A stretch of DNA of 64,000 bases from an uncultured Planctomycetota bacterium (GTDB taxonomy: Bacteria; Planctomycetota; Planctomycetia; Gemmatales; Gemmataceae): positions 288,001 through 352,000 of the forward strand of contig CAWKHF010000004.1 in the NCBI GenBank assembly GCA_963849325.1. The letters run 5' to 3'. Shown in pieces: positions 19,685 to 37,491 of the stretch. Under the pieces are notes generated by a model. It was not told the DNA's origin. It searched no databases and worked only from the letters and a program-made list of their open reading frames with translations. Position 1 is the first letter of the stretch, and each line of letters opens with the position of its first letter. Made by a program: the position numbers and the translations under genes.

Positions 19685-20888
19685 ATGAAACGTCTCCGCT
19701 GTGCCGCCGCGCTGCTGTTTGTCCTGGCCGCCGTTGCCCCGCTGCGAACGGCCGAGAAGGAGGACGGCTTCGTGCCGATGTTCAACGGCAAGGATCTCGA
19801 CGGCTGGGTGAACGTCAACTGCGCTCCCGGCACCTTCTTCGTCAAGGGCGGGGAGATCATCACCACCGGTAAGCCGACCGGCTTTTTGCGCACCGCGAAG
19901 CAATACGAGAACTTCATCGCCGAGTTCGAGTGGATGCACGTCAACAAAAAGGAGGTCGGCAACTCCGGTTTCTTCGTCTGGGCCGACCCGCTGCCGGCGG
20001 TGGGTACGCCGTACACGCGCGGCATCGAGGTGCAGGTGCTGGTCAACCTCGAAAAGGAAGGCGCTTACACTAGCCACGGCGATCTGTTCAGCATCCACGG
20101 CGCCACCTGCAAGCCGGATCGGCCGCACCCGCAAGGCTGGTCGGCGCTGCCTGCCCAGCGAGAGGCGCTGCAAGGGCGGCGGCGAATGGAACCATTACAA
20201 GGTCATCGCCAGGGACGGCGTTCTCAAGCTGCACGTCAATGGCAAGGAGGTGTCCGGCCTCAGCGACTGCAAACCGCGCAAGGGGTATTTGGCCCTGGAG
20301 TCGGAGGGCGCGGAGTGCCACTTCCGCAATCTCCGGATCAAGGAATTGCCTTCCAGCAATCCAACGCCCGAGGAAACTACCGAGGTGGCGAAAGGGTTCC
20401 ACAAACTGTACACCGGCCTCGACCTGGCGGGATGGAAGGCAGACGCCGCGGTTGCGGAGCACTGGCGGCCGCGCAATGGCATCCTGCACGGCGATGGCAA
20501 GGGCGCGGCGCTGACCACCGACAAGGAATTCGGCGATGCGGAATTCCTCGTCGATTTTCGTTCGCCAAGGAAGGGCGCGGCGGCGCCCGGTGTCTTCCTC
20601 TTCCGCGGAAACGAGGAAAAGGGAGTGCGGTTGTCGCTAACCAACGGCAAGGTCATCGTGCGTTCGCCGGGGGGAGAGGCAACGCCGGAGATCTCCGCTC
20701 TCAAGCCTGCCGGGCAGTGGAACCGGCTGCGCGTCTCCCTGAAGGACAACGCGATCCGCGTGGCGATCAACGGCAAGGACGCCGCGGAAGCGACGGTCGC
20801 CGACGTGTCGTCGAGAGGGACGTTTGCGCTCCGCCCCGAGGGGGAGATGGATTTCATGAACCTGTTTGTTCGGGAATTGGGGAAATAA
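19685..20888 (+). CDS. DUF1080 (3-keto-disaccharide hydrolase-like) tandem-domain protein (frameshift near 20145)
   Basis: Signal peptide; FVPMFNGKDLDGW, GNSGFF, GIEVQV; then GYLALESEG..CHFRNLRIKEL and GQWNRLRV in the second frame. Confidence 0.85.
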
Positions 20889-20905
20889 CTCGGGAGAGAA
20901 CAAAC

Positions 20906-22761
20906 ATGGATGTGCGGCGGTGCGGGGTGATGGGGCTGTCGGACGGGTCGGTTCTCTGGCGAGTGTGGGCGTCGCGCGTCGGGCGAGTGGACCTGGTGCT
21001 CCTCGACGGTGCGCAGCGCCGCACTTATCCGATGCAGGCGGAAGAGCATGGCTTCTTTCATTGCAGCTTGCCGGACGTGCGCGAGGGACAGCGCTACGCC
21101 TATCGGCTGAACAATGGGCCAGAGCGTCCTGACCCTCGTTCGTTGTGGCAGCCGGAGGGCGTTCACAACCCGTCGGCCGTCGTCCGTCCCGAGCGCTTCG
21201 CCTGGACCGACCACGGTTGGAAGGGCGTGCCGCGCGAAGACCTGGTGTTCTACGAGCTGCACGTCGGCACCTTCACTGCGGAGGGCACCTTCGCGTCCGT
21301 CATCCCGCGTTTACCTCAGTTGCGTGAACTGGGCGTGACGGCCGTGGAACTGATGCCGGTCGCGCAGTTTCCCGGCAGCCGCAATTGGGGCTACGATGGC
21401 GTCCATCTGTACGCGGCGCAGAACAGCTATGGCGGACCCTACGGTCTGCAACGGCTGGTGGACGCTTGCCACGCGGCCGGGCTGGCGGTCTTCCTCGACG
21501 TGGTGTACAACCATCTCGGGCCGGAGGGCAACTATCTCGCCGAGTTCGGAACGTACTTCACCGAACGCTATCACACCTCCTGGGGCTCCGCCCTCAACCT
21601 CGATGGACCCGGCTCCGACCCCGTGCGCGACTTCCTCCTCGATAACGTCCGTCTCTGGATCGAAGATTTTCACTTCGACGGCCTGCGCCTGGACGCCGTC
21701 CACGCCATTTTCGATTCGCGTCCGCGCCACATCCTCCGCGAGATCAAGGAGGTCGCGGACGCCGCGGCGCGTCCAGGACAACGCATTCACATCATCGCGG
21801 AGAGCCTGGTGAACGACGTGCGCATGGTGCGGGCGCCCGAGGGCGGCGGCCACGGTCTCGACGCCGAATGGAACGAGGATTTTCACCACGCGCTGCACGC
21901 TTACCTCAGCGGCGAGCGGCACGGCAAATATGGCGACTTCGGCGCCACCTCATGCTTGTCGCGCGTGCTGGAGCACACCTTCCACCTCAACGGGATTTAC
22001 AGCGTCCACCGCGGCCGGCGCTGGGCGCCCCCGACGAGGGGCTGCCGGGCGATCGCTTCGTCATCGGTATCCAGAACCACGACCACGTCGGCAACCGGCC
22101 GCGCGGCGACCGGCTGGCGGCGCTGGTTGGCCCGGCGCAGCAGCGCCTGTCCGCCGCCCTGATGCTGCTGTCGCCGTACCTGCCGCTGTTGTTCATGGGC
22201 GAGGAGTACGGCGAGACGAACCCCTTTCCCTTCTTCTGCTCGTTCCACAACGGCCCGTTGATCGAGAATGTCCGCCGCGGACGCCGGCGCGATTACGGCT
22301 TCGCGGCGGGGGCGGAGATGGCCGACCCGCAGGCCGAAGCGACGTTCGCCGCCGCGCGCTTGAGCTGGTCGTGGCCGGAGAATTCGCTTCGGGCCGGACT
22401 GCGTCGTCTGTACCACGATTTGCTGGCGGCGCGACGGCGTTGGCCGGCCCTGCGCGACTTCACGCACCGCAGCGTTCGCCTACTGCCGGACGAGAACGCG
22501 GCGGCCGTCCTGCATCTGGTGCGCGGCATCGGCGGCGCGGCGGCGGAGCTTCACGCCTACTTCAACTTGACGGAACAGCCCCAGCCGTTGCCGAATGCGA
22601 TGGGTGAGGAGAGGAGTTTGTTATTCAGCTCGGAGGCGGAGCGCTATCACGGCAGCCGGACGAACGCGATGGTCCCGAAGCAGCTGAAACCTTATGAATG
22701 TGTCGCGCTTGGGCCGGCCGCGTGGGGGATGCCGATTGTCGAAGAACAACATCTCGTTTAG
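20906..22761 (+). CDS. treZ: Malto-oligosyltrehalose trehalohydrolase, GH13 (frameshift near 22025)
   Basis: [70 protein letters not shown]. Confidence 0.93.
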
Positions 22762-22823
22762 CCGCGACGCGCAGCAGAGCGCGGGAGCCTCCCGCGCTCC
22801 GCTGCGCGTCGCGGCTAAACGAG
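22753..22823. repeat. Palindromic REP-like element (copy 2 of the 11567 family)
   Basis: CTCGTTTAGCCGCGACGCGCAGCAGAGCGCGGGAG...CTCCCGCGCTCCGCTGCGCGTCGCGGCTAAACGAG. Confidence 0.9.
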
Positions 22824-22862
22824 TAACTTGTTTTTCTCCAAACCCAAACCATGCGCGTTAGG

Positions 22863-24181
22863 TCAACTTCGGCAGCACGCCGCCGCCGCAGAAGTCCGGG
22901 TTGCCGAAGCGCTCGATGCGATGGCCCATGCCGTGCGCCAGCGACAGCAGCAGCCGATTGTGCGGCAGCTTGCGGATACTTGATCGAGCGGCCCATGCGG
23001 AAATCCAGGCCGTTGCCGACCAGCACGAACGGGATGTTGTCGAGCGTGTGCGAATTGCCCTTGCCCAGCTCGTTGGTCCAGACCAGCAGCGTGTTGTCGA
23101 GCAGGCTGCCGCCGCCGCCCGGCTCCGGCGTCTCGGCCAAGCGCTTCGCCAGGTAGGCCAACTGCTCGCAATACCACTTGTTGATCTGCGTCAGCTTGTC
23201 CTGGGCGACCTTGTCGCTGTCGGGGCTGTGCGACAGTTCGTGATGGCCCTCGTTGATCTTCAGCCAGCGCATCCGCGCCTGACCGACCGAGTTGGTGAAT
23301 TGCAGCGTCGCCACGCGGGCGAAGTCGGCGGCGAAGCTGTTGACCATCAGGTCGATCTGCATCTTGCTGATGCGCGGGATGTTGTCGTTCTCCTTCTTCA
23401 CGCCCGGTTCCAGCTCGGGAACGGCGTGACCGACGTCCTGGTTCTTGCTCGCCTTCAGCTCCTGCTCCATCTCGCGGACGAACGTGGCGTGTTCGTCCAG
23501 CAGTCGGCGATCCTCGGCGCTGACGGCGGAGCTGACCTTCCGCAGGTCGTCCTGCAGGTCGTCGAGAATGCTCTTCAGGCTCTCCTGGTCCTTGACCCGG
23601 CCGTACAGCTTGGCGAACATCTGGTAGGGATCGTCGATCGGCGCGATCGGCTTGTTCGGCCCGGCGTAGACCATGCGCGTCCAGGTGTCGGCGCGATCGG
23701 GCACCATCACGCCGAACTCCAGCGAGCCGAAGCGCGTGCGCGTCGCCGGGTTGGCCTGCAGATGGTTCTTGATCTCCTGGTCGATGGAGAGACCGCTGGC
23801 CCAGCCGGCCGGCGTGTGCGAGCCGCCCTGGATGTTGCCGGGGAACAGCTCGATGCCGGTCAGCAGGCAGCCGATGCCGCGCATGTGGTTGTCGCCGTCG
23901 CCGCGGACCTTGTCGCAGACGCCGTGCAGGATCAGCGTGCGGTCCTTGAACGGCTCCAGCGGCTTGAGGCTGTCCTTGAGCGTCGTCAACGTTCCCTTCC
24001 TCGTCGGGCCAGAAGGCGGAGGGCACGACGCCGTTGGGGCTGAACAGGACGACCAGCCGCTGTTTGCGCCGCTGTTGGTTGGCGAAGCCGAGGCTGGGCA
24101 GGTTCAGGATGAACGGCAGGGCCGCCGCGCCGATCCCCAGGTCGCGGATGAACTCGCGTCGCGTGCTTGTTGCACGGTCAC
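22863..24181 (-). CDS. DUF1552 domain protein, Tat-like N-terminus, frameshifted
   Basis: [10 protein letters not shown]...[50 protein letters not shown]. Confidence 0.85.
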
Positions 24182-24182
24182 G

Positions 24183-26639
24183 TCACTCCTCCGGAATACG
24201 TCAGGTCTACCGTATGTCAGGCCCGTGTTGATTCTATCGACTCGCCGTCCCGGCTCACGCGGCACCGGCGGCTTAGGCTTTTCCTCATCGGGAATCCAGG
24301 CGGACTCCGCGACGATCTCCACCATCAGCTTACGGACATTGTAGCGATTGTCGGATACGAAGGACCGCCGCAGGTCCGACGAGCTTCGTGCAGGTCCGTA
24401 GGCACGGATCGGCTGCTTGACCAGGTAGTGGAACAGCTGCTCGACAAAGGCGTCGTGCGTCTCCTCGCTGTCGGCCAGGAACGCGGCCAGATCGCGGACG
24501 CCGGTGAACTTCCTCATCTTCGCCGCTGCGCGTCTGGTAGATGCCCGTGGCGTCGATGGGCCGCTCTTTTTCCTGGTCGCGGTAGCGGCCGATGGCGTCG
24601 AAGTGCTCCAGCGTGAAGCCGAGCGGGTTAATCATGCCGTGGCACGTCTGACACGCCTGCGGCCGCGTTTGCAAGCTCGACGCGCTCGCGCGTGGTCAGC
24701 CGTGGGTGCAGGTCCGGCGGCAACGGGGTGAAGGCCTCCGGCGGCGGCTGGAGCGTCCGGCCCAGGACGCTGCGCGACAGGAAGACGCCGCGATGGATCG
24801 GCGAACTGGTCGCCGTGTAGGCGAAGGTCGCCATCAGGTAGGGGTGCGTAAGCACGCCGGCACGCTCGCCGGCTTTCGCCGCGACCTTTCTGGAACGGCG
24901 CATCGGGCGGCAGATCGCCGCCGTAGAATCTGGCCAGCCGGCCGTTGAGATACAGGGAATCCGCGAGCAGCAGTTGGCGGAAGTCCGATGCCTCGCTCCA
25001 GAGCACGTCCTCCAGGAACAACTCCAGCGAGGTGCGCAGGTCCGAGGCGACCGCCTGAGTCGAAGCCGGGGATAGCTGTGCGGAGTCCTTGGACAGGTCG
25101 GGGACCTGATCGACCTTGCAGCCACTGCAGGAAGAACTCGCGGAGCTTGGCCCGGGTCCGCAGGTCGGCGACCATGCGCTCGGCCTGGTGCAGCCACCTG
25201 CTCGCGGGTGGCACAGCTCGGCCGCTCGCCGCCGCTTGCAGAAGCTCGGCGATCGGGCAGCGAATCCCACAGTCCGAAGGAGAGTCCGCGACGCCACGTC
25301 GTAAGCGTCTGGCCCGCCGCCAATCTCGCGGTAGAGGAAACGCGGCGACTTGAGGACGAGCAGCACAACGCGCTTGACGGCCGTTTCCAGATCGCGGGCG
25401 GCTTCGAATCTGGTGATCGACGTAGAGGCGCTTCTGCTCGTCGCGTGAGCGGCCGGCGAAACGCCCGTCTCGGCGAAGCGTACGACAGAACTCGCGGAGA
25501 CGCGCCTTGCGATCCGGCGGCATCGTCCGCGCACGCCGGCCAACTCCGCCAGGCGGGCGACGACGTAGTCCGCAACCTCGATGGCCGCATCGGTCGTGGC
25601 CTGTTCCCACGCCTTGGAGATCGACGTGCCGCGCTCGTAGCCGACGCTGCGGTCGTCCGGCGGAAACGGCGTGGCGACGACGAACGCAACGGGAGAGGCA
25701 GTTCGGCGTCAGGTTTCGCTGCGGGATCACCTCCGCCGTCCGCTGCGGCGGCTTCCACGCCAGCGCGATCGACGCCTTGACTTGCGGGCGGCTTGCCCTT
25801 CTTGTTCTTCGAGTCGTCCACGCCCTGCTTGGCCTTGGAGAACTCCAGCCGCAGCGGATAGACGCGCCCGCCCAGCAGGAAGATCGAGGCGCGATACTCG
25901 GTATCGTTGCCCGACTTCACCCAGGCGTCGATCAGCGGCCGTTTGCGTGTCGTTGACCCACAGCCGGGCGGCGTGCTCGGTGCGGACGATGAATTCGTAA
26001 CTCGCCGGTGTCCGGGGCCAGGACCGAGCCCGTCCAGCGGATCGAGAATTGATTGGCGTCGAACTTCTTGGGGTCCGGGCCGGACGTCGCCGAAGTCGAA
26101 GCGGACCTCGGGATCGACGCGCTCCAGGACGCGGTCGTTGCCGCGGAAGCGCCGGGACTTGAAATACTCGCCGCGCAGGCCGCGTTGCTGGTCCCAGTGG
26201 CTGGGCGTGCGGAAGCTGCCGATCAGGTCGGCGACGGCGTTGCCGATACTGGCGGACGGTGAGGCGCGACAGCTCGATGCGCGGCGGCTTGTTGCGGGCC
26301 TGCGCGGTCTTGGAGTAGAAGGCATCGTAGATGTAGGCGGCGACTTTCTGGGCGTCTTCGCCGCTGCATTTGTCGTCGGTGTCCTTGGGCATGGTCCGGG
26401 CGATGAGGCGGGTGAGCTGGGAAACGGAGCGATCCCCGGCCAGCGGACGCGGGTAATCATCAATCGGTGCCTTCTCCCGACGCTCCATGACACGAGGCGC
26501 ATTGCTGCTTGTAAATCTGTTCTCCGCTACGACCTTCCGCGGCGAGGACGCGGGGGGCCAGCATGCTCAGAGAGCACAGCAGGGCCATCCAGGGTAGGTG
26601 GCGGAGAGGGGACACGGTTGGCGGATTCGTGTGGATCAT
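24183..26639 (-). CDS. Cytochrome c / PA14 / DUF1592-DUF1588 family protein, heavily frameshifted
   Basis: Pieces across frames: signal peptide + IYKQQCASCHG, GLRGEYF (PA14), LSFGLWDSLPD, RAGVLTHPYL, SSPIHRGVF, CQTCHGMINPLGFTLEHFDAIGR. The usual DUF1552 partner follows. 3' end approximate. Confidence 0.82.
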
Positions 26640-26997
26640 GGAGACCGATTCGGGTAGGCCGCTACGAAATCAGGAGGTCGGAAGGCAGGTCAACACTCAC
26701 CGAGGCGCGTCGTCCGCGAACTGGAGGGAAAAATGTCCGGGATGCGGCGCCGAGTGCTGATAAATAGTTTGAAGGCTCGGGGGACGAATGTCAAGGGGAG
26801 AGACGGAAAAGGTCCATTCCTCCCATCCCGTTGTTGCATCGACTGTCTGTTGCCGAAGAGAGACGAAGTTGGTAGGTGCCGCCAGCCGAGCGGCACGGCG
26901 GAACGATACAGCTATCCGTAACCGGCTCACGCGGAGCATGGCGTCGAAGCACGATACACCATCATTCACGTGGTCGGTCTGCTTGTATGTTCCATTT

Positions 26998-27160
26998 CAC
27001 TCCCGATTTCTTGTCGGGAGTATCCTCGACAGGGGAGTCGCGAGGAGGTCTTTCGGTCTGCTGAGGTACGACCTCTTGCTGCAGATTGACCCCTCCGCGT
27101 CGGACCCAGCGCTGGTTACATCTTGAGGCACTGACCTCTGATCACAAGCTTCCGCTCACG
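26998..27160 (+). ncRNA. Predicted IS110 bridge RNA
   Basis: 5' hairpin ACTCCCGA/TCGGGAGT. Target loop with guides TCGGTCTGCT (27053-27062) and GCTGCAG (27078-27084) around hairpin GAGGT/ACCTC. Donor loop with guides GTTACATCT (27115-27123) and ACAAG (27144-27148) around GAGG/CCTC. All four guides match the reconstructed target and donor. RNA ends approximate. Confidence 0.85.
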
Positions 27161-27233
27161 CCGAGCTACGCCGGAGGAGCCTCGCGGCTACGGCCCCATC
27201 GTCTCCCTCTTCACTCCACATTCCGAGGTTCCC

Positions 27234-29042
27234 ATGCTACCACAACACGCTCCCGCTCCGCAATCGCCGCGACGCATCGGCGTCGGCATCGACACCTCCC
27301 GCTACGGCCATTACGCCGTCTTCCTCACGCGACGACCTCCAGCCCGCCGCCGACGAACTCTCCTTCCCCGAGTCCGCCGCCGGCTACGCCCTCTTCCGCC
27401 AACGCCTCGCAAGCGCATCGTCCAGCGCTACGGCGCCGTGCACTTCGTCGTCCGTCTCGACGTGGCCGGACCCGTATGCCGACAACCTGCTCCACTTCCT
27501 GCACCAACTCGGCCACGCCGCCAGCCGACGCCCGCCAACGCCGCCCGCCGTTGGCCCTCACCCTCTCCTGCGGCGATCCGCAACGCAACAAGAACTACCG
27601 CGCCGCCCTCTTCGGCAGCCAGAAGTCCGATCCCGTCGAGGCCCGCGCCGCCGCACGCTTCGCCCTCACCGAGCGAGCCACGCAGTGACAAGCCATTGTC
27701 CCTGCGAACTCCGCATCCTCCGCCAGGTCGCCGGCCGACTCCAGGCCGTCGTCCGCCAACGCACCCGCCTCCTCAACCAGTTCCATCATCTGCTGGCCTT
27801 GACCTTCCCCGAACTGGCCCTGCTCACCAAGGACCTCGCCGCCGGCTGGGTCCTCGAACTGGTCCACCGCTACCCACCGCCGCCGCGCCTGGCCCAGGCC
27901 ACGACCCGGCCGACCTGGCCGCCATCCCCTATCTGCCCGATGACCATGGCGACGCCGCTGCTCGCAACACGCCCAGCACCTCCATCGCCTCGCTGGACGG
28001 CGCGGCCGTCGAGGAGCTGGTGCGCGACCAGGTCCGCCAACTCCGCGACAGTCGGCGCGCGGCAAAAACGCCTGGAATACCTGCTGGTTTCCGCCTATCA
28101 CGCCCTGCCCCAGACCAACCACCTCGACACCATCCCCGGCATCGGCGCCGTCACGGCCGCCGTGCTGACCGCCTTCATCGTCGACATCGATCGCTTCGCC
28201 ACGCCGGGCAAGCTGGTCGCTTATTTCGGCGTCCTGCCCATCGAGGCGTCCAGCGGCGTGGACCGCGACGGCCAGGCCGCGTTCGCCGCGGCGTTGGGTC
28301 ATGAGCCGGCGCGGCAACGACCTGGTGCGTCGCTATCTGTGGATGGCGGCCTTGAGCGCCATCCGCTTCAACCCGGCGGTGCGGGCGTTGTACGCCCGTG
28401 TCGTGGCCAAGCATCCCCAGCACAAGGCGGTCGCCGTCGGCCACGCCATGCGCAAGCTGTTGCACCTGGTCTTCGCCATCTGCAAGAGCGGCCGGCCGTT
28501 CGACCCCGACCACTATCCCTGGCAGACGCCGGCTCACGTCGACGGAGAGTGACAATGACATGTCAGTGGATGCACCGAAGCCAGTGACAAGACCGTGTCA
28601 GTCGAAAGCCAGGCCGCGGGCCACAAGCCGGAAGCTGAGCCGGCTGCGGACAGTGGTCACCGCGGCCTGTGCCGACAGCGTAGCCGAGACGGCCGCGGTC
28701 GGCGAGAGCAACGCCGTCGATTTCGCCCACGTCAAGAGGCAACTGCCGCTGGCCCAGGTGCTCGATCAACTGGGTCTGTCGGCGCGCCTGCGCGGCAGCG
28801 GTCCGCAGCGCCGCGGTGCCTGTCCGCTGCATCGCGGCGATGGCCGCGGCCGGACGTTCAGCGTCAACCTGGAGGCCAACGTCTTCCAGTGCTTCGACAA
28901 GACGTGCGGTCAGAAGGGCGACGTGATCGACCTGTGGGCGGCGTTGCATGGCTTGTCGCTGCGGGAGGCGGCGTTGGACCTGGTGCGGACGTTTGGGCTG
29001 GAGCCTGCGCCACGCACCGGAACAGAGAAGAGGAACGGTTAA
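27234..29042 (+). CDS. IS110 recombinase/transposase with apparent C-terminal CHC2 zinc-finger domain (multiple frameshifts)
   Basis: RIGVGIDTSRYGH, KSDPVEA, LDTIPGIG, FATPGKLVAYFGVLPIEASSG, GNDLVRRYLWMAA, HAMRKLLHLVFAI; then CPLH...FSVN...FQCFDKTCGQKGDVIDL. Confidence 0.88.
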
Positions 29043-29204
29043 GGAACGGTTGACCGCGTCGGTGGAGAGAATCCGCCCTTGGGTCGGGGCCGTCCGCATG
29101 TGCGCAGACAGGACAGAGGAAACCGTTCTTACCGGCCGTCATCACGGGGACGGGGCTTGACATTCATCGTTACATCTGCAGCGGATTGTTCGGCGCTACC
29201 CCCT

Positions 29205-29684
29205 TCAGAAAACAAGAGGCTTACCGACCCCCAAGGAACACTCGACAAGCGCCGCCATCTGAGCGGCAAACTCACGGACCAACCCTGCCATCCCCTGCTG
29301 GACGCACGACATCGCTTGTAGCGCTCCCACCTCGGACGGCAAACTTTTCACCTCTTCGACGGCGAGGAAGTCTCCTGCATGAGTGCCATTGTACAGCACC
29401 TTGGAGAGCAGCAGCGGGAACGTCTCGGCCTGCCGCTCCAACTCCGCTCGCAGGGCGGCGACCAGCGCGATGTTGCCGATGCGGTGGTGCAGCAACACGC
29501 CCAGCTCGTGCTCGCAGGCGCGCTCGAGTTGCCATCGGTCAAAGGCGAGCTGGACCTCAAGGTCGTCGCTGCCGCAGAGCAGGCTCCCATCGGCCGAGAC
29601 GGACAGGTTACAGCCGGGCGGCGGTGGTTCTCGCAAGCGTCCCCGCTCGAAGCAGTCGCAGTACACAACCGCGTCCAACCCCAT
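29205..29684 (-). CDS. Hypothetical protein carried as a putative integron gene cassette
   Basis: 159-aa ORF MGLDAVVYCDCFERG...KPLVF. Preceded closely by GTTCGGC (29710-29704) and an RBS-like GGAG; followed immediately by the attC-like site. Confidence 0.7.
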   Translation of the reverse strand: MGLDAVVYCDCFERGRLREPPPPGCNLSVSADGSLLCGSDDLEVQLAFDRWQLERACEHELGVLLHHRIGNIALVAALRAELERQAETFPLLLSKVLYNGTHAGDFLAVEEVKSLPSEVGALQAMSCVQQGMAGLVREFAAQMAALVECSLGVGKPLVF

Positions 29685-29715
29685 CTCTGCTTCGCTCCGC
29701 CTCGCCGAACAGTGA

Positions 29716-31474
29716 TTAGTCTGAGGCGGGGCGTCTCGCGGCCTCATTCGTGGTGGTCCCTCGTGGACCCCGTTCGGAAGTTTGCCCTTCCTCACGCCAC
29801 GTTGCGCCTCCGCCGGCCTCCCACGGTTGTCCCACGAACTCCTCTATTCTGAAGGCTCCCATGTCCCGGCACAAGCACCAAACCGCCTCGTCCGCCCCCA
29901 GGCAACCCGCCACGCCCGTGGCACCGCAACGCCGCCGTCACACGCCCACTCCCGCCGACGACGGCTACCACGAATCCCTGCCCATTCAGCACGGCCACGC
30001 GGCCGGCATCGACGTGGGCTCACGCACGCACGGGGTCGCTGCCCCCGCAGCAGACGGCACCCTGGACGTGGCCTGCTTCGACACCTACACCGAGGGACTA
30101 CGCGCCCTGGCCGCCTGGCTCCATGCCCACGCGGTCACCACCGTGGCCCTGGAGGCCACCGGCATTTACGGCGATCCCCTCTTCGATCTGCTCCCAAGCC
30201 AGGGCTTTGACGTCATCCATGTCAACCCCGCCTACACCGCCCAACTCCAGGGACGGCCCAAGACCGACAAGCTCGACTGCCAGTGGATCCAACGCCTGCA
30301 CGCCCACGGCCTGCTGCCCGCCTCCTTTCGGCCCGCCGCCGATGTCGCCGTACTCCGCGTCTACCTCCGTCAGCGGGCCGAACTCGTCCGCGCCGGTGCC
30401 CGACACATCCAGCACATGCAGAAGGCGTTGGAGTTAATGAACGTCAAGCTGACCGAGGTGGTCAGCGACGTGACGAGCTGGACCGGCCTGAAGATCATCC
30501 AGGCCATCCTGGACGGTCAACGCGACCCGCTGACGCTGGCGCGACTGCGGAACAAGCACTGCAAGAACAGCATCGATACCTTCGCGCGTGCCCTGCAGGG
30601 CAGTTGGCGTGACGAACACGTGCTGACGTTGCGGCAGGCGTTAGCATCGTGGCAGCACTATCAGGCTCAGCAACGGGAGTTGGAGGAAGCGATCGCCCGC
30701 CACCTCCATCGGATGAAAAAGACGACCGCGCTGCCGCCGCTGCTGCCCAAGCCGCGACGGCGGAGCCGCGCGGCCAACGAACCACGCTTCGACGTGCGAA
30801 CCGCCCTGTACTACGTGACCGGCGTGGACTTGACCGAGTTGGACGGGATCGCCGACGTGACGGCCTTGGTGGTCGTCAGCGAGATCGGCCTGGACATGAG
30901 CCGTTTCCCCTCCGCGAAGCACTTCTGCGCCTGGTTGGGGTTGTGCCCGCGGGTGAAGAAATCCGGAGGTCGGGTCTTGTCGAGTCGGACGCGCAAGGGC
31001 AAGGGCGCCGCGGCGCGGGCCTTGTGTCTGGCGGCGCGGTCGTTGTGGCGCAGTCCAACGGCGTTGGGTGCTTTGCTGCGGCGGTGGAAGGCCCGCTTGG
31101 GGGCGCCTGCGGCGATAACCGCGGTAGCGCACCGAGCTGGCTCGGCTGCTGTATCAAACCTTGAAGACGGGGGCGTTGCCGGCCCGCGAGACGGCGGCGG
31201 CGTATGCGGCCCGCCAGCGGGAGCAAGCGGTGGCAACGTTGCGGAAGAAGGCGTTGCGTCTGGGTCTGCGCGTGGTAGCGACGAGTGAAATCGTGGAGAG
31301 CGTAGCGTCGCCGCCATGAACGATAGCGGGTGCGGCATGGCCCGAGGTTCGCCCAGGGAGACGAGCAAACAAGGCCCGATCACAGCAAGCGACAGCGAGG
31401 GAGACCGCTTCGGTTCACGGCGGAGCGTCCTTGAGTGCGCACAGCAGTCAAAGATAGAATAAGTCTTCTGAAGA
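29716..31474 (+). mobile_element. Second IS110-family element (different subgroup); boundaries inferred
   Basis: Transposase inside, structured left non-coding end, possible duplicated GA core at 29714-29715 and 31473-31474. Confidence 0.6.
29861..31319 (+). CDS. IS110-family transposase (frameshift near 31135)
   Basis: AAGIDVG, VALEATGIY, KTDKLDCQWI (DEDD tetrad), SEIGLDMSRFPSAKHFCAWLGLCP..KKSGG, AITAVAH; tail LARLLYQTL...LRKKA in the next frame. Confidence 0.92.
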
Positions 31475-31503
31475 AGCTCCTCGGAAGGCCGCGCAGATGA
31501 GAC

Positions 31504-31535
31504 CGTGATAGGCTGCGCCTGCGCAGCCTATCACG
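31504..31535. repeat. Palindrome right of the second IS
   Basis: CGTGATAGGCTGCGC-CT-GCGCAGCCTATCACG. Confidence 0.7.
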
Positions 31536-32323
31536 AAACAACGCCGACCTCGGAAAACGCCATTACTTCTTGGATGGACTAGGGTTGCGCTAAATGATGC
31601 GCAATCTTCTTCCCCTGCTAGGCCGCACAGCGGTCACAGAGCGAGGACTTTGCTATCTCGCGCTCGCGCGCGATAGCATGGGAAAGCGCTTTCCCACTGC
31701 TGTCGAGGATGGACCCCAAAGACAGCATCCTTTGACCGCGCACACCCCGCTCCATCCGGTAAGCCCGACTCTATCCGCTGGCCAACGGCATGGCAAGAAA
31801 AAACCGACACGATTTCCGCGGTTGGGATAGGGTGCGTGCCTTCGGGTAGTTCCTGTTTGCCCTCGTTGCCCAGCTCGACTTCCCGTCCGGTCAGGGACCG
31901 GCCGAGAAGCAGCGCTTCGCCCACGGACGTTGCCCAGCCGAGCGGGGCAACGAGGGTCTACGGCCCGACACTCCAACGATCCGAAATGATGGAGCACTCG
32001 ATCGGAAAGCGCAGCTGCCTTGAGACTCTGGCCAAGTGGCATAGACGGCAGTTGCCCTCGCGCAAACGGAATGCCCGCAAGCTTTTGGGGGAGTCGGGTG
32101 TGTTTGCCCCCCCTCTCCGCCCCGGCAAGGTGACAGACAGACGCAGACGGACGGACAGCAACGACCCCAAACGATTTGCCCACCCGCGACTTCTGGCGGT
32201 TCGTCGAATCGCGCGGCTCTTCGGGCCACTGCGAAACGAAAACGCCGGTGAGCGCGTGACACGCCGGTCACGCGGGTGCCTAAGGGGGGATAGGCACGTC
32301 TAACCGTGGAAAGGAGTTCGGTC

Positions 32324-35300
32324 ATGGTCCTCCTCTGTCCGCGTCTGGTCCTCCCGGCACTGCCGGTCTTCCTGGGGCTGGCGCTGTCCGCCGCACCGCT
32401 CTCCGCGGCCGCTCCGCCGGCGTCCGCGAGCTGCGCATCCAGCAGGTCGGCGATGTCACCTATTTCCACGTCCAGTTCGCCACGCCGCGAGGGATGACGC
32501 CGGGCGGCGAGACGCGCCTGGTGCCGCAGGACGGCCAGGCCAACCACGTCTGCCGGCGCAGCGATGATACGAGCGGCCAGGCCGCTTCTCCTCGGGGTGT
32601 CCAGCCCATCGAGACAAAAAGCGACACTCCTCCCGGTCGCCAGCCCTCGCCGGCGCCTCGTCGCCCTGTGCCGGTCGATGGCCTGGAGTTCACCGGCCGT
32701 CTGAATGGCAAGGGCGAGATCCCGTTCGTCCTGCTGTACACGATGGAGAATCCGCTGCCACGCCTGGGACTCTTCCGTTCGCAGATATTGCGTGGCCGGC
32801 AGCGCCTCAACTGGGTCGAAACGCCCGTCGTGCTCGATTTTCGCAAGGCCGAGAAGGTTGCTCTGCCCGCCGAGGCCAGGGAACGCGCAGACCGAAGCGG
32901 GCTAAGAAGAAAGCCGCTCCAATGGCCGGTGCGAGATGACCTCGAAGGATTGTGGGCCGTGGCCCAGAATGACGAGTTTGGCCGACTCCAAGCCGAGGTG
33001 ACGGAGTTCGGTTTCTACGCCTTCGCCATCCGGGCCGGCGCAGCAAGTATCACGTGCCCGTCAACCTTCACTGGAATCGCAGCATTCCTCCTCGCGGCTT
33101 CGCCAGGCCTCCCATTGATGCGCAACTGTACGAAACCACCACCGGAGCGGCCGCCATCGCCGAGTCGCTGCAATTGCAGCGCATGAGCAACGCCAACTTC
33201 CGCGACAACGGCAAGCGCAGCGTCGCCATCGACAAGATCGAGGGCATCGACATCGCCGAGCACCCGTGGGACAAGATGATGGGCGACAAGAAGCCCGCCC
33301 CCGAGCCGATGGCCCGCCTCATCCCCGACGACAACTACTACCTGCATTTCAAGAACATCCGCCAGTTGATCGAGTTCTCCGACCTGCTCGACCATTGGGG
33401 CACGAACCTCATCCGCGCCTACGAGGTCCACAGCCGCGATCACCGCCTCAAGGATCGCTATCAGCAACAACTCTGCCTGCGGAGCACGGAGCTGGGCCGG
33501 AAGTTCGGCCCGCTGGTGCTGCGCGGCGTCGCCGTCACCGGCAGCGACGGCTACCTGCGCGAAGGCTCCGACGTGGCGATCATCTTCCACGTCGCCAACC
33601 GTCCGCTGTTCCTCGGCGCCGTGCAGCCGTTTATCGAGGAGGCGCGCAAGAAGTTCGGCGACCAGCTCAAGGAGAGCAAGGCCGAGGTCAACGGCGTCAC
33701 CATCGAGAGCTTCACGACGCCGCTGCGCGAGGTCAGCCTGTACCGGGCGGTTGTCGAGGAGTACGTCATCTACGCCAACTCGCCGACCGGCCTGCGGCGC
33801 ATCCTCGACACCTACCAGGGCCGGCGCAAGGCGCTGGCCGACGCCCGCGATTTCCAGTACATGCGGACCATCTTCCGCTACGACGACAAGGACGAGGCCG
33901 GCTTCGCCTACCTGTCCGACGCCTTCATCCGTCAGCTGGTCGGCCCGGCCAGCAAGATCAAGGAGAAGCGACGCCTCGAAGCGCTGACGAGCATGTACAT
34001 GCTGACGGAGGGCGCCCTGTACCACGCCTGGCAGTCCGGCAAGCCGCCCGCCGACTATGACGCCCTGCTCGACGCCGCCGGGCTACGGCCGGAGGAGGTC
34101 TATCTGCCCGAGGGCCGGCCGCTGGTCTGGAACGCCGCCGCGACAGGTCGCCGTTTCCGACGTGTACAACACTCTCCACTTCGCCACGCCGTTGATCGAG
34201 CTGCCCATCGAGCAAATCACCGAGGCGGAGGCGCAGGCGTACCGCCAGTTCCGCGCTGCAGTATCTCGGCCTGTGGCGGCAATACTTCGATCCCATCGGT
34301 ATGCGCATCGCCCTCGACGATAAGCAGCGTCCGGCTCGATACCTACATCCTGCCGCTGGTAGCCAACAGTCGTTACAACGAGTTGCGCCGCGTCACCGGC
34401 GACGGCGTGGTTCGCCTGGACCTCGGCAGCATCGCGCCGCAAACGATCGCGCAGTTCATGATGCACCTGTCGCCCAACGTCGGCGACCGCGGCGGCGCAC
34501 TGGGCCTGCTCGGTTCGGGCGGTTCGGCCGGCGATCTCACTTCGCTCGTCGCCTGGGCGCTGGACCCGGTCGGCAAGTGGGTGCTCGTTCGCGCCGACGA
34601 CAGCCCGGTCTACGGTCAGCTGGCCGACCTGCTGGAACGTATCGACGAAGGACAAAATGTCGATGCCGAACGCATTGCTCGTCTGGTATTTCAGATGCCG
34701 GTCATGGTCGGCATGGACGTGAAGAACTCGTTGACGTTCGCCGTCGCCCTCGCTGCCGCGCGGACGAGCGTGATGAAGTCGCTCCCCGGCGCCTTGACCT
34801 GGGAGCCGCTGGAAAAACCCTACAAAGACGTGTCGATCGTGCAGATCAAGGCGACGCCAGCCGGCATGCGGCAGCGTACCGCTTACTCCAGCGAACACCG
34901 GCAAAGACCCGTTCCTGCCCGCCGTGTATTACGCCATGATCGACGGCGCTTTTTACCTCACGTTCAGCGAGCCGATGCTTCGCGACCTCATCGACCGCTC
35001 GCAGGAGAAGCGCGAGGGCGAGTCCCAGACGGTCGAGGTCAATAGCTCGCTGTACGTCTCGCCCGGCGCGGCGCAATTGACGCGCGGACTGGTTCAGAAA
35101 TATCTGGAGAAACAGGTCCACGACCAGGCGCTGGCGAGCGCGCCCGTGTGGTATCCCCTCTACCACAGCGGCCTTCTCGCCGAAGGGACGAGCCGCGCCG
35201 AGGCAAACACTCTGGCCGAGAGATATTTCGGTTTTGTTCCGGTCAGTCCGGACGGCGCCGCTTTCGTCTACGACCGGCGCACGGACGAGGTGCGCAACGA

Positions 35301-35466
35301 GCGGCACGGTTCGCCGGCGCGGCCGAAGACGCACAAGACACTGGCCGAGAACGCCCAAATCAAGCAACTGCTGGAGCAGCTGCGCTCGATCCGGGCCGAT
35401 CTGCGCTTCCGCGAAGACGGTATCCACACGACGCTGACGATCGATCGCAACGTCCCGGAGAAGTAG
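32324..35466 (+). CDS. Large exported hypothetical protein (about 1000 aa), several frameshifts
   Basis: AAGGAG RBS and signal peptide at 32324; continuous high-GC3 coding signal across ORFs 32494-33186, 33054-35045 and 34924-35466. No family recognised. Confidence 0.7.
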
Positions 35467-35573
35467 CTTATCCGCTCCCAGCCGCTTTCGACTTAGCGCG
35501 GCAGCGGCCAACGCTAAGCCGCAAGCGGCTGGGGCACCTGCTTTCCCACCTGGAGCAGCCGTCGCGCTGTTGT

Positions 35574-37491
35574 TCAGAACGTCCAACTCCTCGGCCACCG
35601 CTCGCGCCGCCTTGTCCATGATGAAACGATAGCGCTGCGACGGATCCTTGCCCAGCAGATCGACGAATGTCTTGTCCGTTTCCAGGTTCGAGTCGATCTG
35701 CACTTGCAGTAGTGTGCGATTGCGCGGATCGAGTGTCGTCTCGGCGAGCACCTTCGGGTCCATCTCGCCCAACCCTTTGAAGCGCGAGACCTCGGGCTTG
35801 GCGTTGGCGCGCAGGCCGGCGAGGATTTCTTCTTTGTGGGCATCGTCGCGGGCCCAGTAGGTCTCCTTGCCGACGTCGATGCGATACAGCGGCGGCTGGG
35901 CCAGGTAGACGCGGCCCTTGCGGATCAACTCGGTCATGTGCCGGAAGAAGAACGCCAGCATCAGCGTCGTGATGTGATGGCCGTCCGCGTCGGCGTCCAT
36001 GAGGAGGATGATCTTGCCGTAACGTAGACCGTTGAGGTCGAATTTGTCGCCGGCGCCGGTGCCGATCGCCGAGACGAGATCGTTCAACTCTACATTGGAC
36101 AGCACCTTGCTGAGCGGCAGCCCTTCGGAATTGAGGACCTTGCCGCGCAGCGGCAGCACTGCCTGCGTCTTGTTGTTGCGCCCCTGTTTGGTCGAACCGC
36201 CGGCGCTGTCTCCTTCCACAATAAAGATCTCTGATTCGTCCAGGCTAGTCGATTTGCAGTCGGCGAGCTTGCCGGGCAGGTTGAGGCGGCGCTGCGTGAC
36301 CGACTTGCGCTTGACCTCGCTGGCTGCCTCGCGTGAGGCGAGGCGAGCTTTGGCGGCGAGCACGATACGACCGACGATCTGGTCGGCGGCGGTCTTGTTG
36401 GCGTTCAGCCACGATTCCAGGGCCGGCCGCACCCAACCGTCCACGGTCGCCGTCATCTCCGGGTTGTTCAGCTTCTCCTTGGTCTGTCCCTGGAACATCG
36501 GCTCGCGCACGAACACCGACAGGATGGCGACGATGCCCTCGCGGATGTCCTCGGCCGTGATGGTCAAGCCCTTGACCTTGACCTCGTGCGTCTCCATGTA
36601 ATTGCGGATGGCCTTGGCGATGCCGCCCTTCAGTCCGTTCTCGTGGGTGCCTCCCGCCGACGTGCGGATGCCGTTGACGTAGGAGCGGATGGCCTCGTCG
36701 GTGGACTCGGTCCACTGCAAGGCCACCTCCATTTTTTCGCCGTTGTTGCGCGCCAGCGTGAAAGGCGTTTCCGTCACCGGCGGCTTCTGTCCCTCGACCA
36801 CGAGACGCTGCAAGAACTCCGGGATGCCGCCGGGATGCGTCAGATCATACGTCTCCTTGGCAATCTCATCCTTGAAGGTGATCTTCAGACCGCTGTGGAT
36901 GTACGACATGCTTTCCAGATGTTCGCGGATCCACTTGGGATCGAGCTGCGTTGTCTTGAAGATGTCGGCGTCCGGCTCGAAGTAGATCGTCGTACCGTGG
37001 CCGCGGAAGGGGCCGACCTTCTCCAACTCGCCGGCCGGTTTGCCGCGCCGGAACGTCTGCCGCCACTCGAAGCCGTCGCGGTGGATGGTAGCAATCAATT
37101 TGCGGGACAGGGCGTTGACGACCGACGAACCGACGCCGTGCAGGCCGCCGGAGTGGAGGTAGCTATCGCCATCGCCGAACTTGGCGCCGGAGTGCAGCGT
37201 CGTCAGGATCAACTCCAGGGCCGGCCTCTTGTGCTTGGGGTGCAAATCGACCGGGATGCCGCGGCCGTTGTCGCTGACGGTCACGGCGTCGCCGGACTTG
37301 TGCAGCGTCACCGTAACGGCGTCGGCGTGGCCGTTGAGGTATTCATCGACGGCGTTATCGACGATCTCCCAAACGAGATGGTGCAACCCCTTGGCGTCCA
37401 CGCCGCCGATGTACATCGACGGCCGCTTGCGCACGGGTTCCAACCCTTCGAGAACCCCAATGTCCTTGGCGGTGTAAGTGGTAGCGCTCAT
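35574..37491 (-). CDS. parE: Type IIA DNA topoisomerase subunit B (ParE/GyrB family, probably topo IV)
   Basis: LEGLEPVRKRPSMYIG, EIVDNAVDE, DNGRGIP, GGLHGVGSSVVNALS, EGDSAGG, PLRGK, DADADG, RFKGLGEM. Natural end ...EELDV with an apparent extra base before TGA at 35576-35574. Confidence 0.88.

Follow-up and report, generated by a model that had tools for sequence, protein, structure and literature searches.

An IS110-group insertion sequence with a putative left-end guide RNA in an attC-like site of a planctomycete genome

We analysed a 64,000-nucleotide stretch of DNA (the window) from an uncultured planctomycete of the family Gemmataceae, namely positions 288,001 to 352,000 of contig CAWKHF010000004.1 in the NCBI GenBank assembly GCA_963849325.1 (G000:C4:288001-352000 in our numbering of genomes and contigs). 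The source assembly, G000, comprises 8.16 Mb in 14 contigs with a G+C content of 65% and is 84.7% complete. The window very probably holds an insertion sequence (IS) of the IS110 group that carries its own guide RNA and is lodged inside the L'' box of an integron-type attC site, the recombination site of gene cassettes. Its placement in the IS110 group follows from the position of the RNA and from the CT core dinucleotide.

A preliminary description of this DNA had proposed an IS621-like element with a left-end RNA that sits in an attC-like site and uses such sites as a multicopy landing pad. Its account of the sequence is borne out. The core of the element is CT, and its non-coding left end of 250 nt, which has a two-loop fold, lies upstream of a recombinase gene with DEDD and Transposase_20 domains. 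The empty site had been reconstructed correctly base for base, as a 103-bp sequence starting 10 nt after a stop codon. This site belongs to a 49-member family with a covarying hairpin, the counterparts of which form arrays beside integron integrase genes in related genomes. The related records that were reached via the protein of the element are metagenome-assembled genomes of Gemmataceae and other Planctomycetota.

The element and the site that it interrupts

The ends of the element are common to 12 related loci and read CT followed by TGTATGTT at the left and CGTTACAT followed by CT at the right. The right end is kept in seven related loci and, in addition, in a solo right end at C6:48302-48375. 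Uninterrupted paralogues of the target in the source genome read CGGTCTG-CT-GCAGCG with a single CT; the left junction in the window equals them through the CT and the right junction equals them from the CT on. Thus, a single CT core stands at either end of the element, without any other duplication of the target. Three of the 12 left junctions read GT in place of CT, and the terminal repeat, noted by eye without a formal search, is only 4 nt long (TGTA). A different empty joint, CGGTCTGCAGCG, with a TGC or CTGC core, returned one unrelated coding match and was dropped in favor of the CT core. Only two full copies of the element are found in the source genome, the second of which (C7:283559-285474) is 89% identical to that of the window. 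A 448-aa IS110-family gene, the product of which starts MKSTAYRAV, is joined to the left of the element in two genomes (L011, 2005; and C7:285474-287000, L001). In L011 this gene is interrupted after about 20 codons and the right flank of the element is still attC-like, whereas in the C7 copy it replaces the left end of the element.

Removing positions 26984-29177 in silico leaves a site of 103 bp on the minus strand ((29194-26898+1) minus 2194). From the boxes at its 5' quarter (Table 1), the site continues across the element with CAGACCG at 26981-26975 and ends in GGATAGC-TGTATC-GTTCCGC; the stop codon of the preceding open reading frame (ORF), at 29205-29207, lies 10 nt before the R'' box. 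We scored the site with an nhmmer profile of its family that was built from the source genome alone, seeded with four uninterrupted sites and iterated. At E ≤ 1e-4 the family counts 49 elements in the source genome, the left part of the window site included, which together cover 0.08% of that genome. The halves on the two sides of the element match model positions 12-97 (26895-26983, 46.8 bits) and 96-124 (29176-29204) and therefore abut exactly. Once joined, the site matches positions 13-124 of the profile with 73.5 bits (E 1e-19), and it scores 44.7 bits (E 1e-10) under a second profile, from the seeds of which the window is absent. The 14-mer CGGTCTGCTGCAGC, given in the preliminary description, has two exact copies in the 8.16-Mb genome (C5:67214 and C12:879952), both of them within family members that are uninterrupted and both oriented alike. 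Judged by its sequence, the window site is a solitary, partly decayed attC site.

A 33-nt stretch at 26872-26904, which includes the R' box, also corresponds to the left half of a palindromic repeat of greater length (GTAGGTGCCGCGAGCCGAGCGGCAC...) with copies at C11:99719-99751 and C1:495093-495125; hence, the outer end of the attC site may adjoin or overlap a different repeat family. An Rfam scan of 20000-36000 at E ≤ 1 returned no match in the element or the site, its sole match being a weak sbcD at 22765-22892. None of the public sequencing runs contains the locus (best 0.09 of the sampled words).

Table 1. Features of the element and the interrupted site in the window (positions are those of the window)
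Feature	Position	Strand	Basis or detail
Insertion sequence body, IS110 group, 2192 bp	26984..29175	+	Ends kept in 12 related loci and the C7 copy
Left core dinucleotide CT	26982..26983	+	Comparison with uninterrupted paralogues
Right core dinucleotide CT	29176..29177	+	Comparison of copies
Left target arm (LT) CGGTCTG	26975..26981		Defined by comparing copies
Right flank GCAGCGG	starts 29178		Comparison of copies
Non-coding left end, 250 nt, putative bridge RNA	26984..27233	+	Alignment of 12 left ends
-10-like hexamer TATGTT	26986-26991	+	
5' hairpin of left end	26999-27021	+	
Putative target-binding loop	about 27044-27096	+	
Putative left target guide CGGTCTGCT, first loop, 5' side	27054..27062	+	Equals LT + core 26975-26983, 9/9
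Putative right target guide GCTGCAG, first loop, 3' side	27078..27084	+	Reverse complement of core + right target arm 29176-29182, 7/7
Putative donor-binding loop	about 27110-27155	+	
Putative left donor guide GTTACATCT, second loop	27115..27123	+	Equals right end + core 29169-29177, 9/9
Putative right donor guide CACAAG, second loop	27143..27148	+	Reverse complement CTTGTG vs core + left end CTTGTA, 5/6
Recombinase gene, DEDD RuvC-like and Transposase_20 domains, three reading frames in the window copy	27234..28645	+	Pfam; tblastn
C-terminal CHC2 zinc ribbon, DnaG-primase type, separate frame in the window	28653..29042	+	Pfam PF01807
Right end, 133 nt	29043..29175	+	-35 hexamer TTGACA 29157-29162; left donor arm GTTACAT 29169-29175
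R' box GTTCCGC (family consensus GTTCGGC)	26898..26904	-	Aligned to family profile start
3' three-quarters of attC: 6-nt spacer, decayed L' box, variable centre, distal L'' box	26905..26981	-	nhmmer
5' quarter of attC, cassette orientation	29178..29194	-	nhmmer and sequence
R'' box GCCGAAC	29194-29188	-	
5' spacer AATCC, 5 nt	29187-29183	-	
Proximal L'' box GCTGC, then AG (CT core on + strand)	29182-29178	-	
Cassette-like ORF, 159 aa from internal ATG at 29684	29205..29684	-	No Pfam family

Guide segments, recombinase and choice of target

The left ends of 12 loci align well; among them, L022 derives from a deletion and L021 has gained an insertion. For 10 of the 12, RNAalifold returned a consensus of 49 pairs, 12 of them with compensatory changes, which comprises a 5' hairpin and two modules, each with an outer stem, an internal loop and an inner hairpin. 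The putative guides in the two loops correspond to the target and the donor, respectively (Table 1). Among the eight loci that have a right flank, the right target guide matches it at 7/7 positions in seven and at 6/7 in L020. In L014 the right guide and the right flank have changed jointly. In L019 three changes in the left guide are shared by its own flank, which the guide matches at 8/9 positions against 5/9 for the consensus guide. Since the L019 flank is not attC-like while the guide follows it, we take this locus for a case of natural retargeting. The L019 copy (2238) lies in a record labelled Alcaligenaceae, both its left and its right target guide are altered, and its right flank is lost at a contig end. 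The computed circle junction combines TTGACA and TATGTT at a distance of 17 nt; a search of the integrated copy for a promoter-like site showed none.

The recombinase of the C7 copy is a single 608-aa open frame with the domains DEDD_Tnp_IS110, Transposase_20 and Zn_ribbon_DnaG. When searched by tblastn with this intact protein, the window gene appears in pieces in frames 2, 3 and 1; it differs from the C7 copy by about 15 indels of one base each. Both PF01548 (46.4 bits) and PF02371 (70.7 bits) exceed their own cut-offs, whereas the NCBIfam model for IS110, NF033542, scores 123.7 bits, under its cut-off of 140 bits. The closest solved structure for the recombinase is the IS621 transposase (E 3e-14), and the zinc ribbon matches the PDB entry 1d0q (E 8e-5). 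This ribbon is fused to the recombinase in intact relatives: PF01807 is present in 117 of the 120 homologue clusters listed, which derive from 2134 proteins at E ≤ 1e-10. By these domain matches, the fusion of recombinase and zinc ribbon, in a protein of about 596-608 aa, is widespread among the homologues.

To gauge how general attC targeting is, we collected 22 distinct left junctions, namely that of the window, 11 loci from the first set of relatives and 10 new loci. Four more were left out: L193 and L202, which repeat L020 and L018, respectively, L200, which is without the end motif, and G198:C11, where the contig ends. A broader profile, made from 31 sites of the source genome and 27 integrase-side sites, matches 15 of the 22 junctions at E ≤ 1e-4, and all these matches end at the same model position. 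A strict box-and-stem rule accepts 9/22 junctions versus 14 of 20000 random positions; the rule is overly strict, as spacers of 5 nt or ATC boxes occur in some sites. On the other side of the element, GTT(C/A)G(G/C)C lies exactly 5 nt past the right target arm in six of the eight right junctions. A metagenome scan with a 15-nt word from the right end, which is too short for that collection, yielded 80 loci with one true right end (L088), the 14-nt flank of which fits the pattern.

Within the source genome, the share of CGGTCTGCTGCAGC matches that fall in attC elements declines with the number of mismatches (exact 2/2; one mismatch 18/46; two 9/430; three 11/3685). The idea of a multicopy landing pad is supported across genomes, in that 15 of the 22 insertion sites are attC sites cut at the same position and here 20 of the 48 14-mer matches with at most one mismatch lie in the family. 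The expectation that the 14-mer matches would coincide with attC-like repeats stands for these 20 and fails for the remaining 28. The site does match the attC-family profiles built here, and the other insertions do not as a rule lie in non-attC contexts.

It is also conceivable that the protein, for instance by way of its fused CHC2 zinc ribbon, recognizes the folded hairpin and so determines the target in part or in the main, with RNA pairing as one of two required matches. We consider this unlikely, though several findings speak for it. The DnaG-type ribbon recurs in 117 of the 120 relatives listed, and the left guide matches at just 6-8 of 9 positions in 16/18 loci, yet 15/22 insertions lie at the same attC position. 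Likewise, the 28 near-perfect 14-mers outside attC carry no copy in the source genome, and a requirement for a stem-loop beside RNA pairing is reported for ISPpu10 in a preprint (10.64898/2026.03.19.712850). However, empty near-matches say little when the source genome holds only two full copies, guide and flank have changed together in L019 and L014, and a 349-aa IS110-family recombinase without a zinc ribbon also abuts these attC sites.

The attC family and its link to integrons

To define the structure of the family, we aligned 25 of the 30 full-length members, dropping five (L026, L038, L041, L047 and L049) in which a foreign repeat takes the place of one end. In the orientation of the ORF that precedes the site, the consensus reads GCCGAAC, 5 nt, GCT[G]CAGCAG[A]CCG..., a variable centre, ...CGGCTGCTGAGC, 6 nt and GTTCGGC. 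This amounts to a 7-nt box ending in AAC, a 5-nt spacer, a bulged stem, a 6-nt spacer and a 7-nt box starting with GTT. The 5' arm of the stem has a 1-nt bulge at each of the alignment columns 36 and 43, with six paired bases in between. RNAalifold gave an 8-pair L stem alone on this alignment. As the subfamilies of the central stem are offset by one base, the structure was named by hand and the central stem was excluded. In the named structure, 84.8% of the cells are paired versus 23-45% with slid partners, and the covariation score is 0.246 versus 0.05-0.11 with slid partners; none of 500 shuffles reaches the observed value. The L stem has 87.4% of its cells paired and changes on both sides in 10 of 14 pairs, and the R-box pairs show such changes in 0/7. 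The bulged bases sit on the ORF-side arm, which is the R''-L'' arm of Bouvier et al. (2009, PMC2727003), whose account places two or three extrahelical bases on this arm, the second 6 to 8 nt from the first. The arm with the bulges is also the integrase-side arm in the array of a relative. The spacers and the bulge-bearing arm fit the definition of attC, and from this structure together with the link to integrons described next we identify the family as attC sites.

The link to integrons is further borne out by the related genomes. An integron integrase above the 265-bit cut-off occurs in 32 of 81 genomes of the same family as against none of 14 control genomes. The DNA on the cassette side of eight integrase genes from relatives was scanned with the own-genome profile. 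In L063 there are 22 full-length, co-oriented sites, 300-550 bp apart, which start about 420 bp off the integrase gene, run away from it and read GCCTAAC...GCTGCAGCCGACCG...CTGCTGAGC...GTTAGGC. L065, L067 and L068 have four, four and three sites, respectively, on the cassette side of the integrase; all those of L067 run away from the integrase gene, and two of the three in L068 are on that strand. In the source genome itself, a 196-aa ORF at C5:71040-71630 matches solely integron integrases in NCBIfam (64.8 and 62.1 bits, N-terminal part only) and lies 3.8 kb from three co-oriented attC sites (C5:64306-67237). Two IS110-family genes and one DDE transposase gene lie between this remnant and the sites, and the region C5:62000-73000 (L070) has the appearance of an integron in decay. 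Both integrons and an attC covariance model specific to the taxon have been described for Planctomycetes (Cury et al. 2016, PMC4889954; Ghaly et al. 2021, PMC8352920), and the scattered small clusters of the source genome fit the class of integrase-less attC clusters described in these accounts. The boxes in the source genome are mostly GCCGAAC/GTTCGGC, as opposed to the GCCTAAC/GTTAGGC beside the integrase of the relative.

These data bear directly on the possibility that the target is some other dispersed palindromic repeat, of the repetitive extragenic palindrome (REP) or miniature inverted-repeat transposable element (MITE) kind, that merely resembles attC. Such a repeat would account for the occurrence of the elements as singles and groups of two to three over most contigs, for the failure to find an intact integrase in the assembly and for boxes that depart from the canonical ones at position 4. 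Moreover, REP sequences have been described as targets of IS110-family elements (PMC12288879; reference list of PMC11208160). A non-integron repeat is nevertheless very unlikely, and we regard this explanation as close to refuted: the same profile finds arrays of 22, 4, 4 and 3 sites beside integrases in four related genomes, those of L063 and L067 all run away from the integrase (two of three in L068), the integrase-side sites carry GCCTAAC/GTTAGGC boxes, the spacers and the bulged arm fit attC, and an integrase remnant lies beside one cluster of the source genome. That the shared flanks belong to a larger mobile unit travelling with the element, as might be suggested by a flank similarity that in many loci reaches about 80 nt beyond the left end and 19 nt beyond the right end, can be dismissed, because uninterrupted sites exist, the flanks stop precisely where the attC model does, and the centres of the flanking sites differ between loci, with boxes and stems alone being kept.

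Several observations weigh against a guide-RNA element in an integron site. As to the element, the window recombinase gene extends over three frames; the copy may be dead, but as the neighboring cytochrome c/PSCyt gene (24628-26639) likewise falls into at least three reading frames, either both are pseudogenes or the assembly contains indel errors here. Agreement of the left guide with its own flank reaches 9/9 positions in only two of the 18 readable loci, with 6-8 of 9 in the others, and the bridge RNA itself is putative, being deduced from sequence and a consensus fold. As to the site, it is solitary in a search of the window and its L' box is decayed to 8 nt (TTACGGAT) as compared with the 6-nt CTGCTG of the family. 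The family boxes GCCGAAC/GTTCGGC differ at position 4 from the canonical attC boxes, RYYYAAC/GTTRRRY. The attC class was scored by structure and with profiles made from sites of the source genome and from integrase-side sites. Furthermore, the first bulged base is a G on the top strand and a C on the bottom strand, where the account in PMC2727003 names G. An integron integrase above the cut-off is absent from the 84.7% complete assembly (best 85 bits versus 265), and four of the eight integrase-adjacent stretches (L059, L061, L066 and L064, the last only 998 nt long) are without a match. Finally, seven of the 22 junctions miss E ≤ 1e-4, three with weak partial matches and four (L011, L019, L198 and L203) with none, and 28/48 matches to the 14-mer with at most one mismatch fall outside attC elements.

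Other elements are also found at sites of this family. In the window, a second IS110-family gene with DEDD and Transposase_20 domains (29750-31288, plus strand) starts directly upstream of the cassette-like ORF, and the homology of its element to C5:953704-953891 and C12:511475-511677 begins at 29713. Two nucleotides from that point lies the heptamer GCCGAAC (29704-29710), which on the minus strand reads as an R'-like GTTCGGC, 19 nt before the ATG of the ORF. A search of the window for the remainder of an upstream attC site beyond the second IS110 gene found none. A further IS110-family lineage, which has the 349-aa recombinase without a zinc ribbon and a long non-coding region downstream of its gene, abuts the same attC family at a different position (L069, C12:879875-881100). 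In place of the R'' box, four sites of the source genome (the others being C5:954850, C7:540326 and C12:1471909) and one relative (right flank of L015) have the sequence GATACTCATGAAGG.... At C5:67125, C5:713170 and C7:540324, the L'-R' end has given way to a third recurrent junction, in which CGGCTGCT precedes TCTATGATGCCAGGCCACTCGTCAAGAG..., which suggests yet another element landing in attC sites.

Proposed mechanism, known systems and significance

By analogy with IS621 and the seekRNA work, the element would be excised as a circle, the joined ends of which would build the promoter (TTGACA, 17 nt, TATGTT) that transcribes the left end. The resulting RNA would pair one of its loops with the donor joint GTTACAT-CT-TGTAT and the other with CGGTCTG-CT-GCAGC, whereupon the DEDD recombinase would exchange strands at the CT. 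No other stretch of these attC sites is as well conserved as the L'' box; with its tens of copies per genome, this box therefore offers many intergenic landing sites without disruption of genes. The 2.2-kb insertion parts the R''-L'' arm from the L'-R' arm and should prevent folding of the attC hairpin. The question of whether it also blocks excision of the cassette is probably moot here, because the site is solitary, its L' box is decayed and the assembly has no integrase above the cut-off.

A more far-reaching possibility is that the CHC2 zinc ribbon is an adaptation to structured or single-stranded targets, in which case the ribbon would recognize the attC arm in its folded form, or the template of the lagging strand on which attC hairpins form, and the L'' sequence would be left to the bridge RNA. 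The result would be a two-key recombinase specialized on cassettes, and its spread, together with that of at least one other IS110-family lineage abutting the same sites, could help to explain why the integron of the source genome is broken up into scattered integrase-less attC sites. We think it quite improbable that this is so.

attC sites are also known as targets of group IIC introns, and IS1111-group elements at attC sites are reportedly named in the work of Tetu and Holmes from 2008 and of Post and Hall from 2009. The closest parallel to the window element in RNA and core is the IS621/IS110 group. Like that group, the window element has a putative two-loop RNA, with target guides of 7 nt plus the core and the core plus 5 nt in one loop and donor guides in the other, and a candidate promoter formed solely on joining of the ends. 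They also share the DEDD and Transposase_20 domains and the CT core on both sides, as described in the accounts of Durrant et al. (2024, PMC11208160) and Hiraizumi et al. (2024, PMC11208158), as well as a long non-coding region upstream of the gene (PMC11187229, PMC11208160). IS621 is similarly described as having one core on each side and no other duplication (PMC11208160). The IS110-group proteins are given as 315 to 455 aa long, with the RNA upstream of the gene (PMC11187229). In contrast to the IS621 type, which has about 330 aa, the protein of the window element has about 596-608 aa and ends in a CHC2 zinc ribbon; in addition, its target is an integron attC site, its host is a planctomycete and its left end is without an Rfam family match.

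The attC-targeting elements of the IS1111 group (ISKpn4, ISPst6 and ISPa25; Siddiquee et al. 2024, PMC11187229) share with it a DEDD recombinase, a fixed position and orientation in attC near one end, and a non-coding guide RNA of their own. In that account, their guide RNA lies downstream of the gene, their subterminal inverted repeats measure 7-17 bp and their proteins 330-350 aa. The window element, unlike these, has its guide segments upstream of the gene and a fused zinc ribbon. The REP-targeting elements ISPpu9, ISPpu10 and ISPa11 resemble it in a repeated intergenic hairpin as target, RNA guidance and one fixed orientation, but their target is the REP element instead of a cassette recombination site. 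Our literature search, which left most subscription journals out of reach, found no paper that links a bridge RNA to attC in its text and none on a fusion of IS110 and CHC2. What is new here is the putative left-end bridge RNA at attC, the fusion of recombinase and zinc ribbon and the planctomycete host; attC targeting itself is known from the IS1111 group. An IS110-group element with the guide RNA at its opposite end thus arrives at this type of target as well, which amounts to convergence in the choice of landing site.

The element offers a natural candidate bridge RNA with a defined, multicopy and structured target, with natural retargeting events in its relatives, and a recombinase variant, about 596 aa long and fused to a zinc ribbon, that is widespread. 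For integrons, the finding implicates insertion sequences in the disabling and scattering of the cassette arrays of soil planctomycetes.

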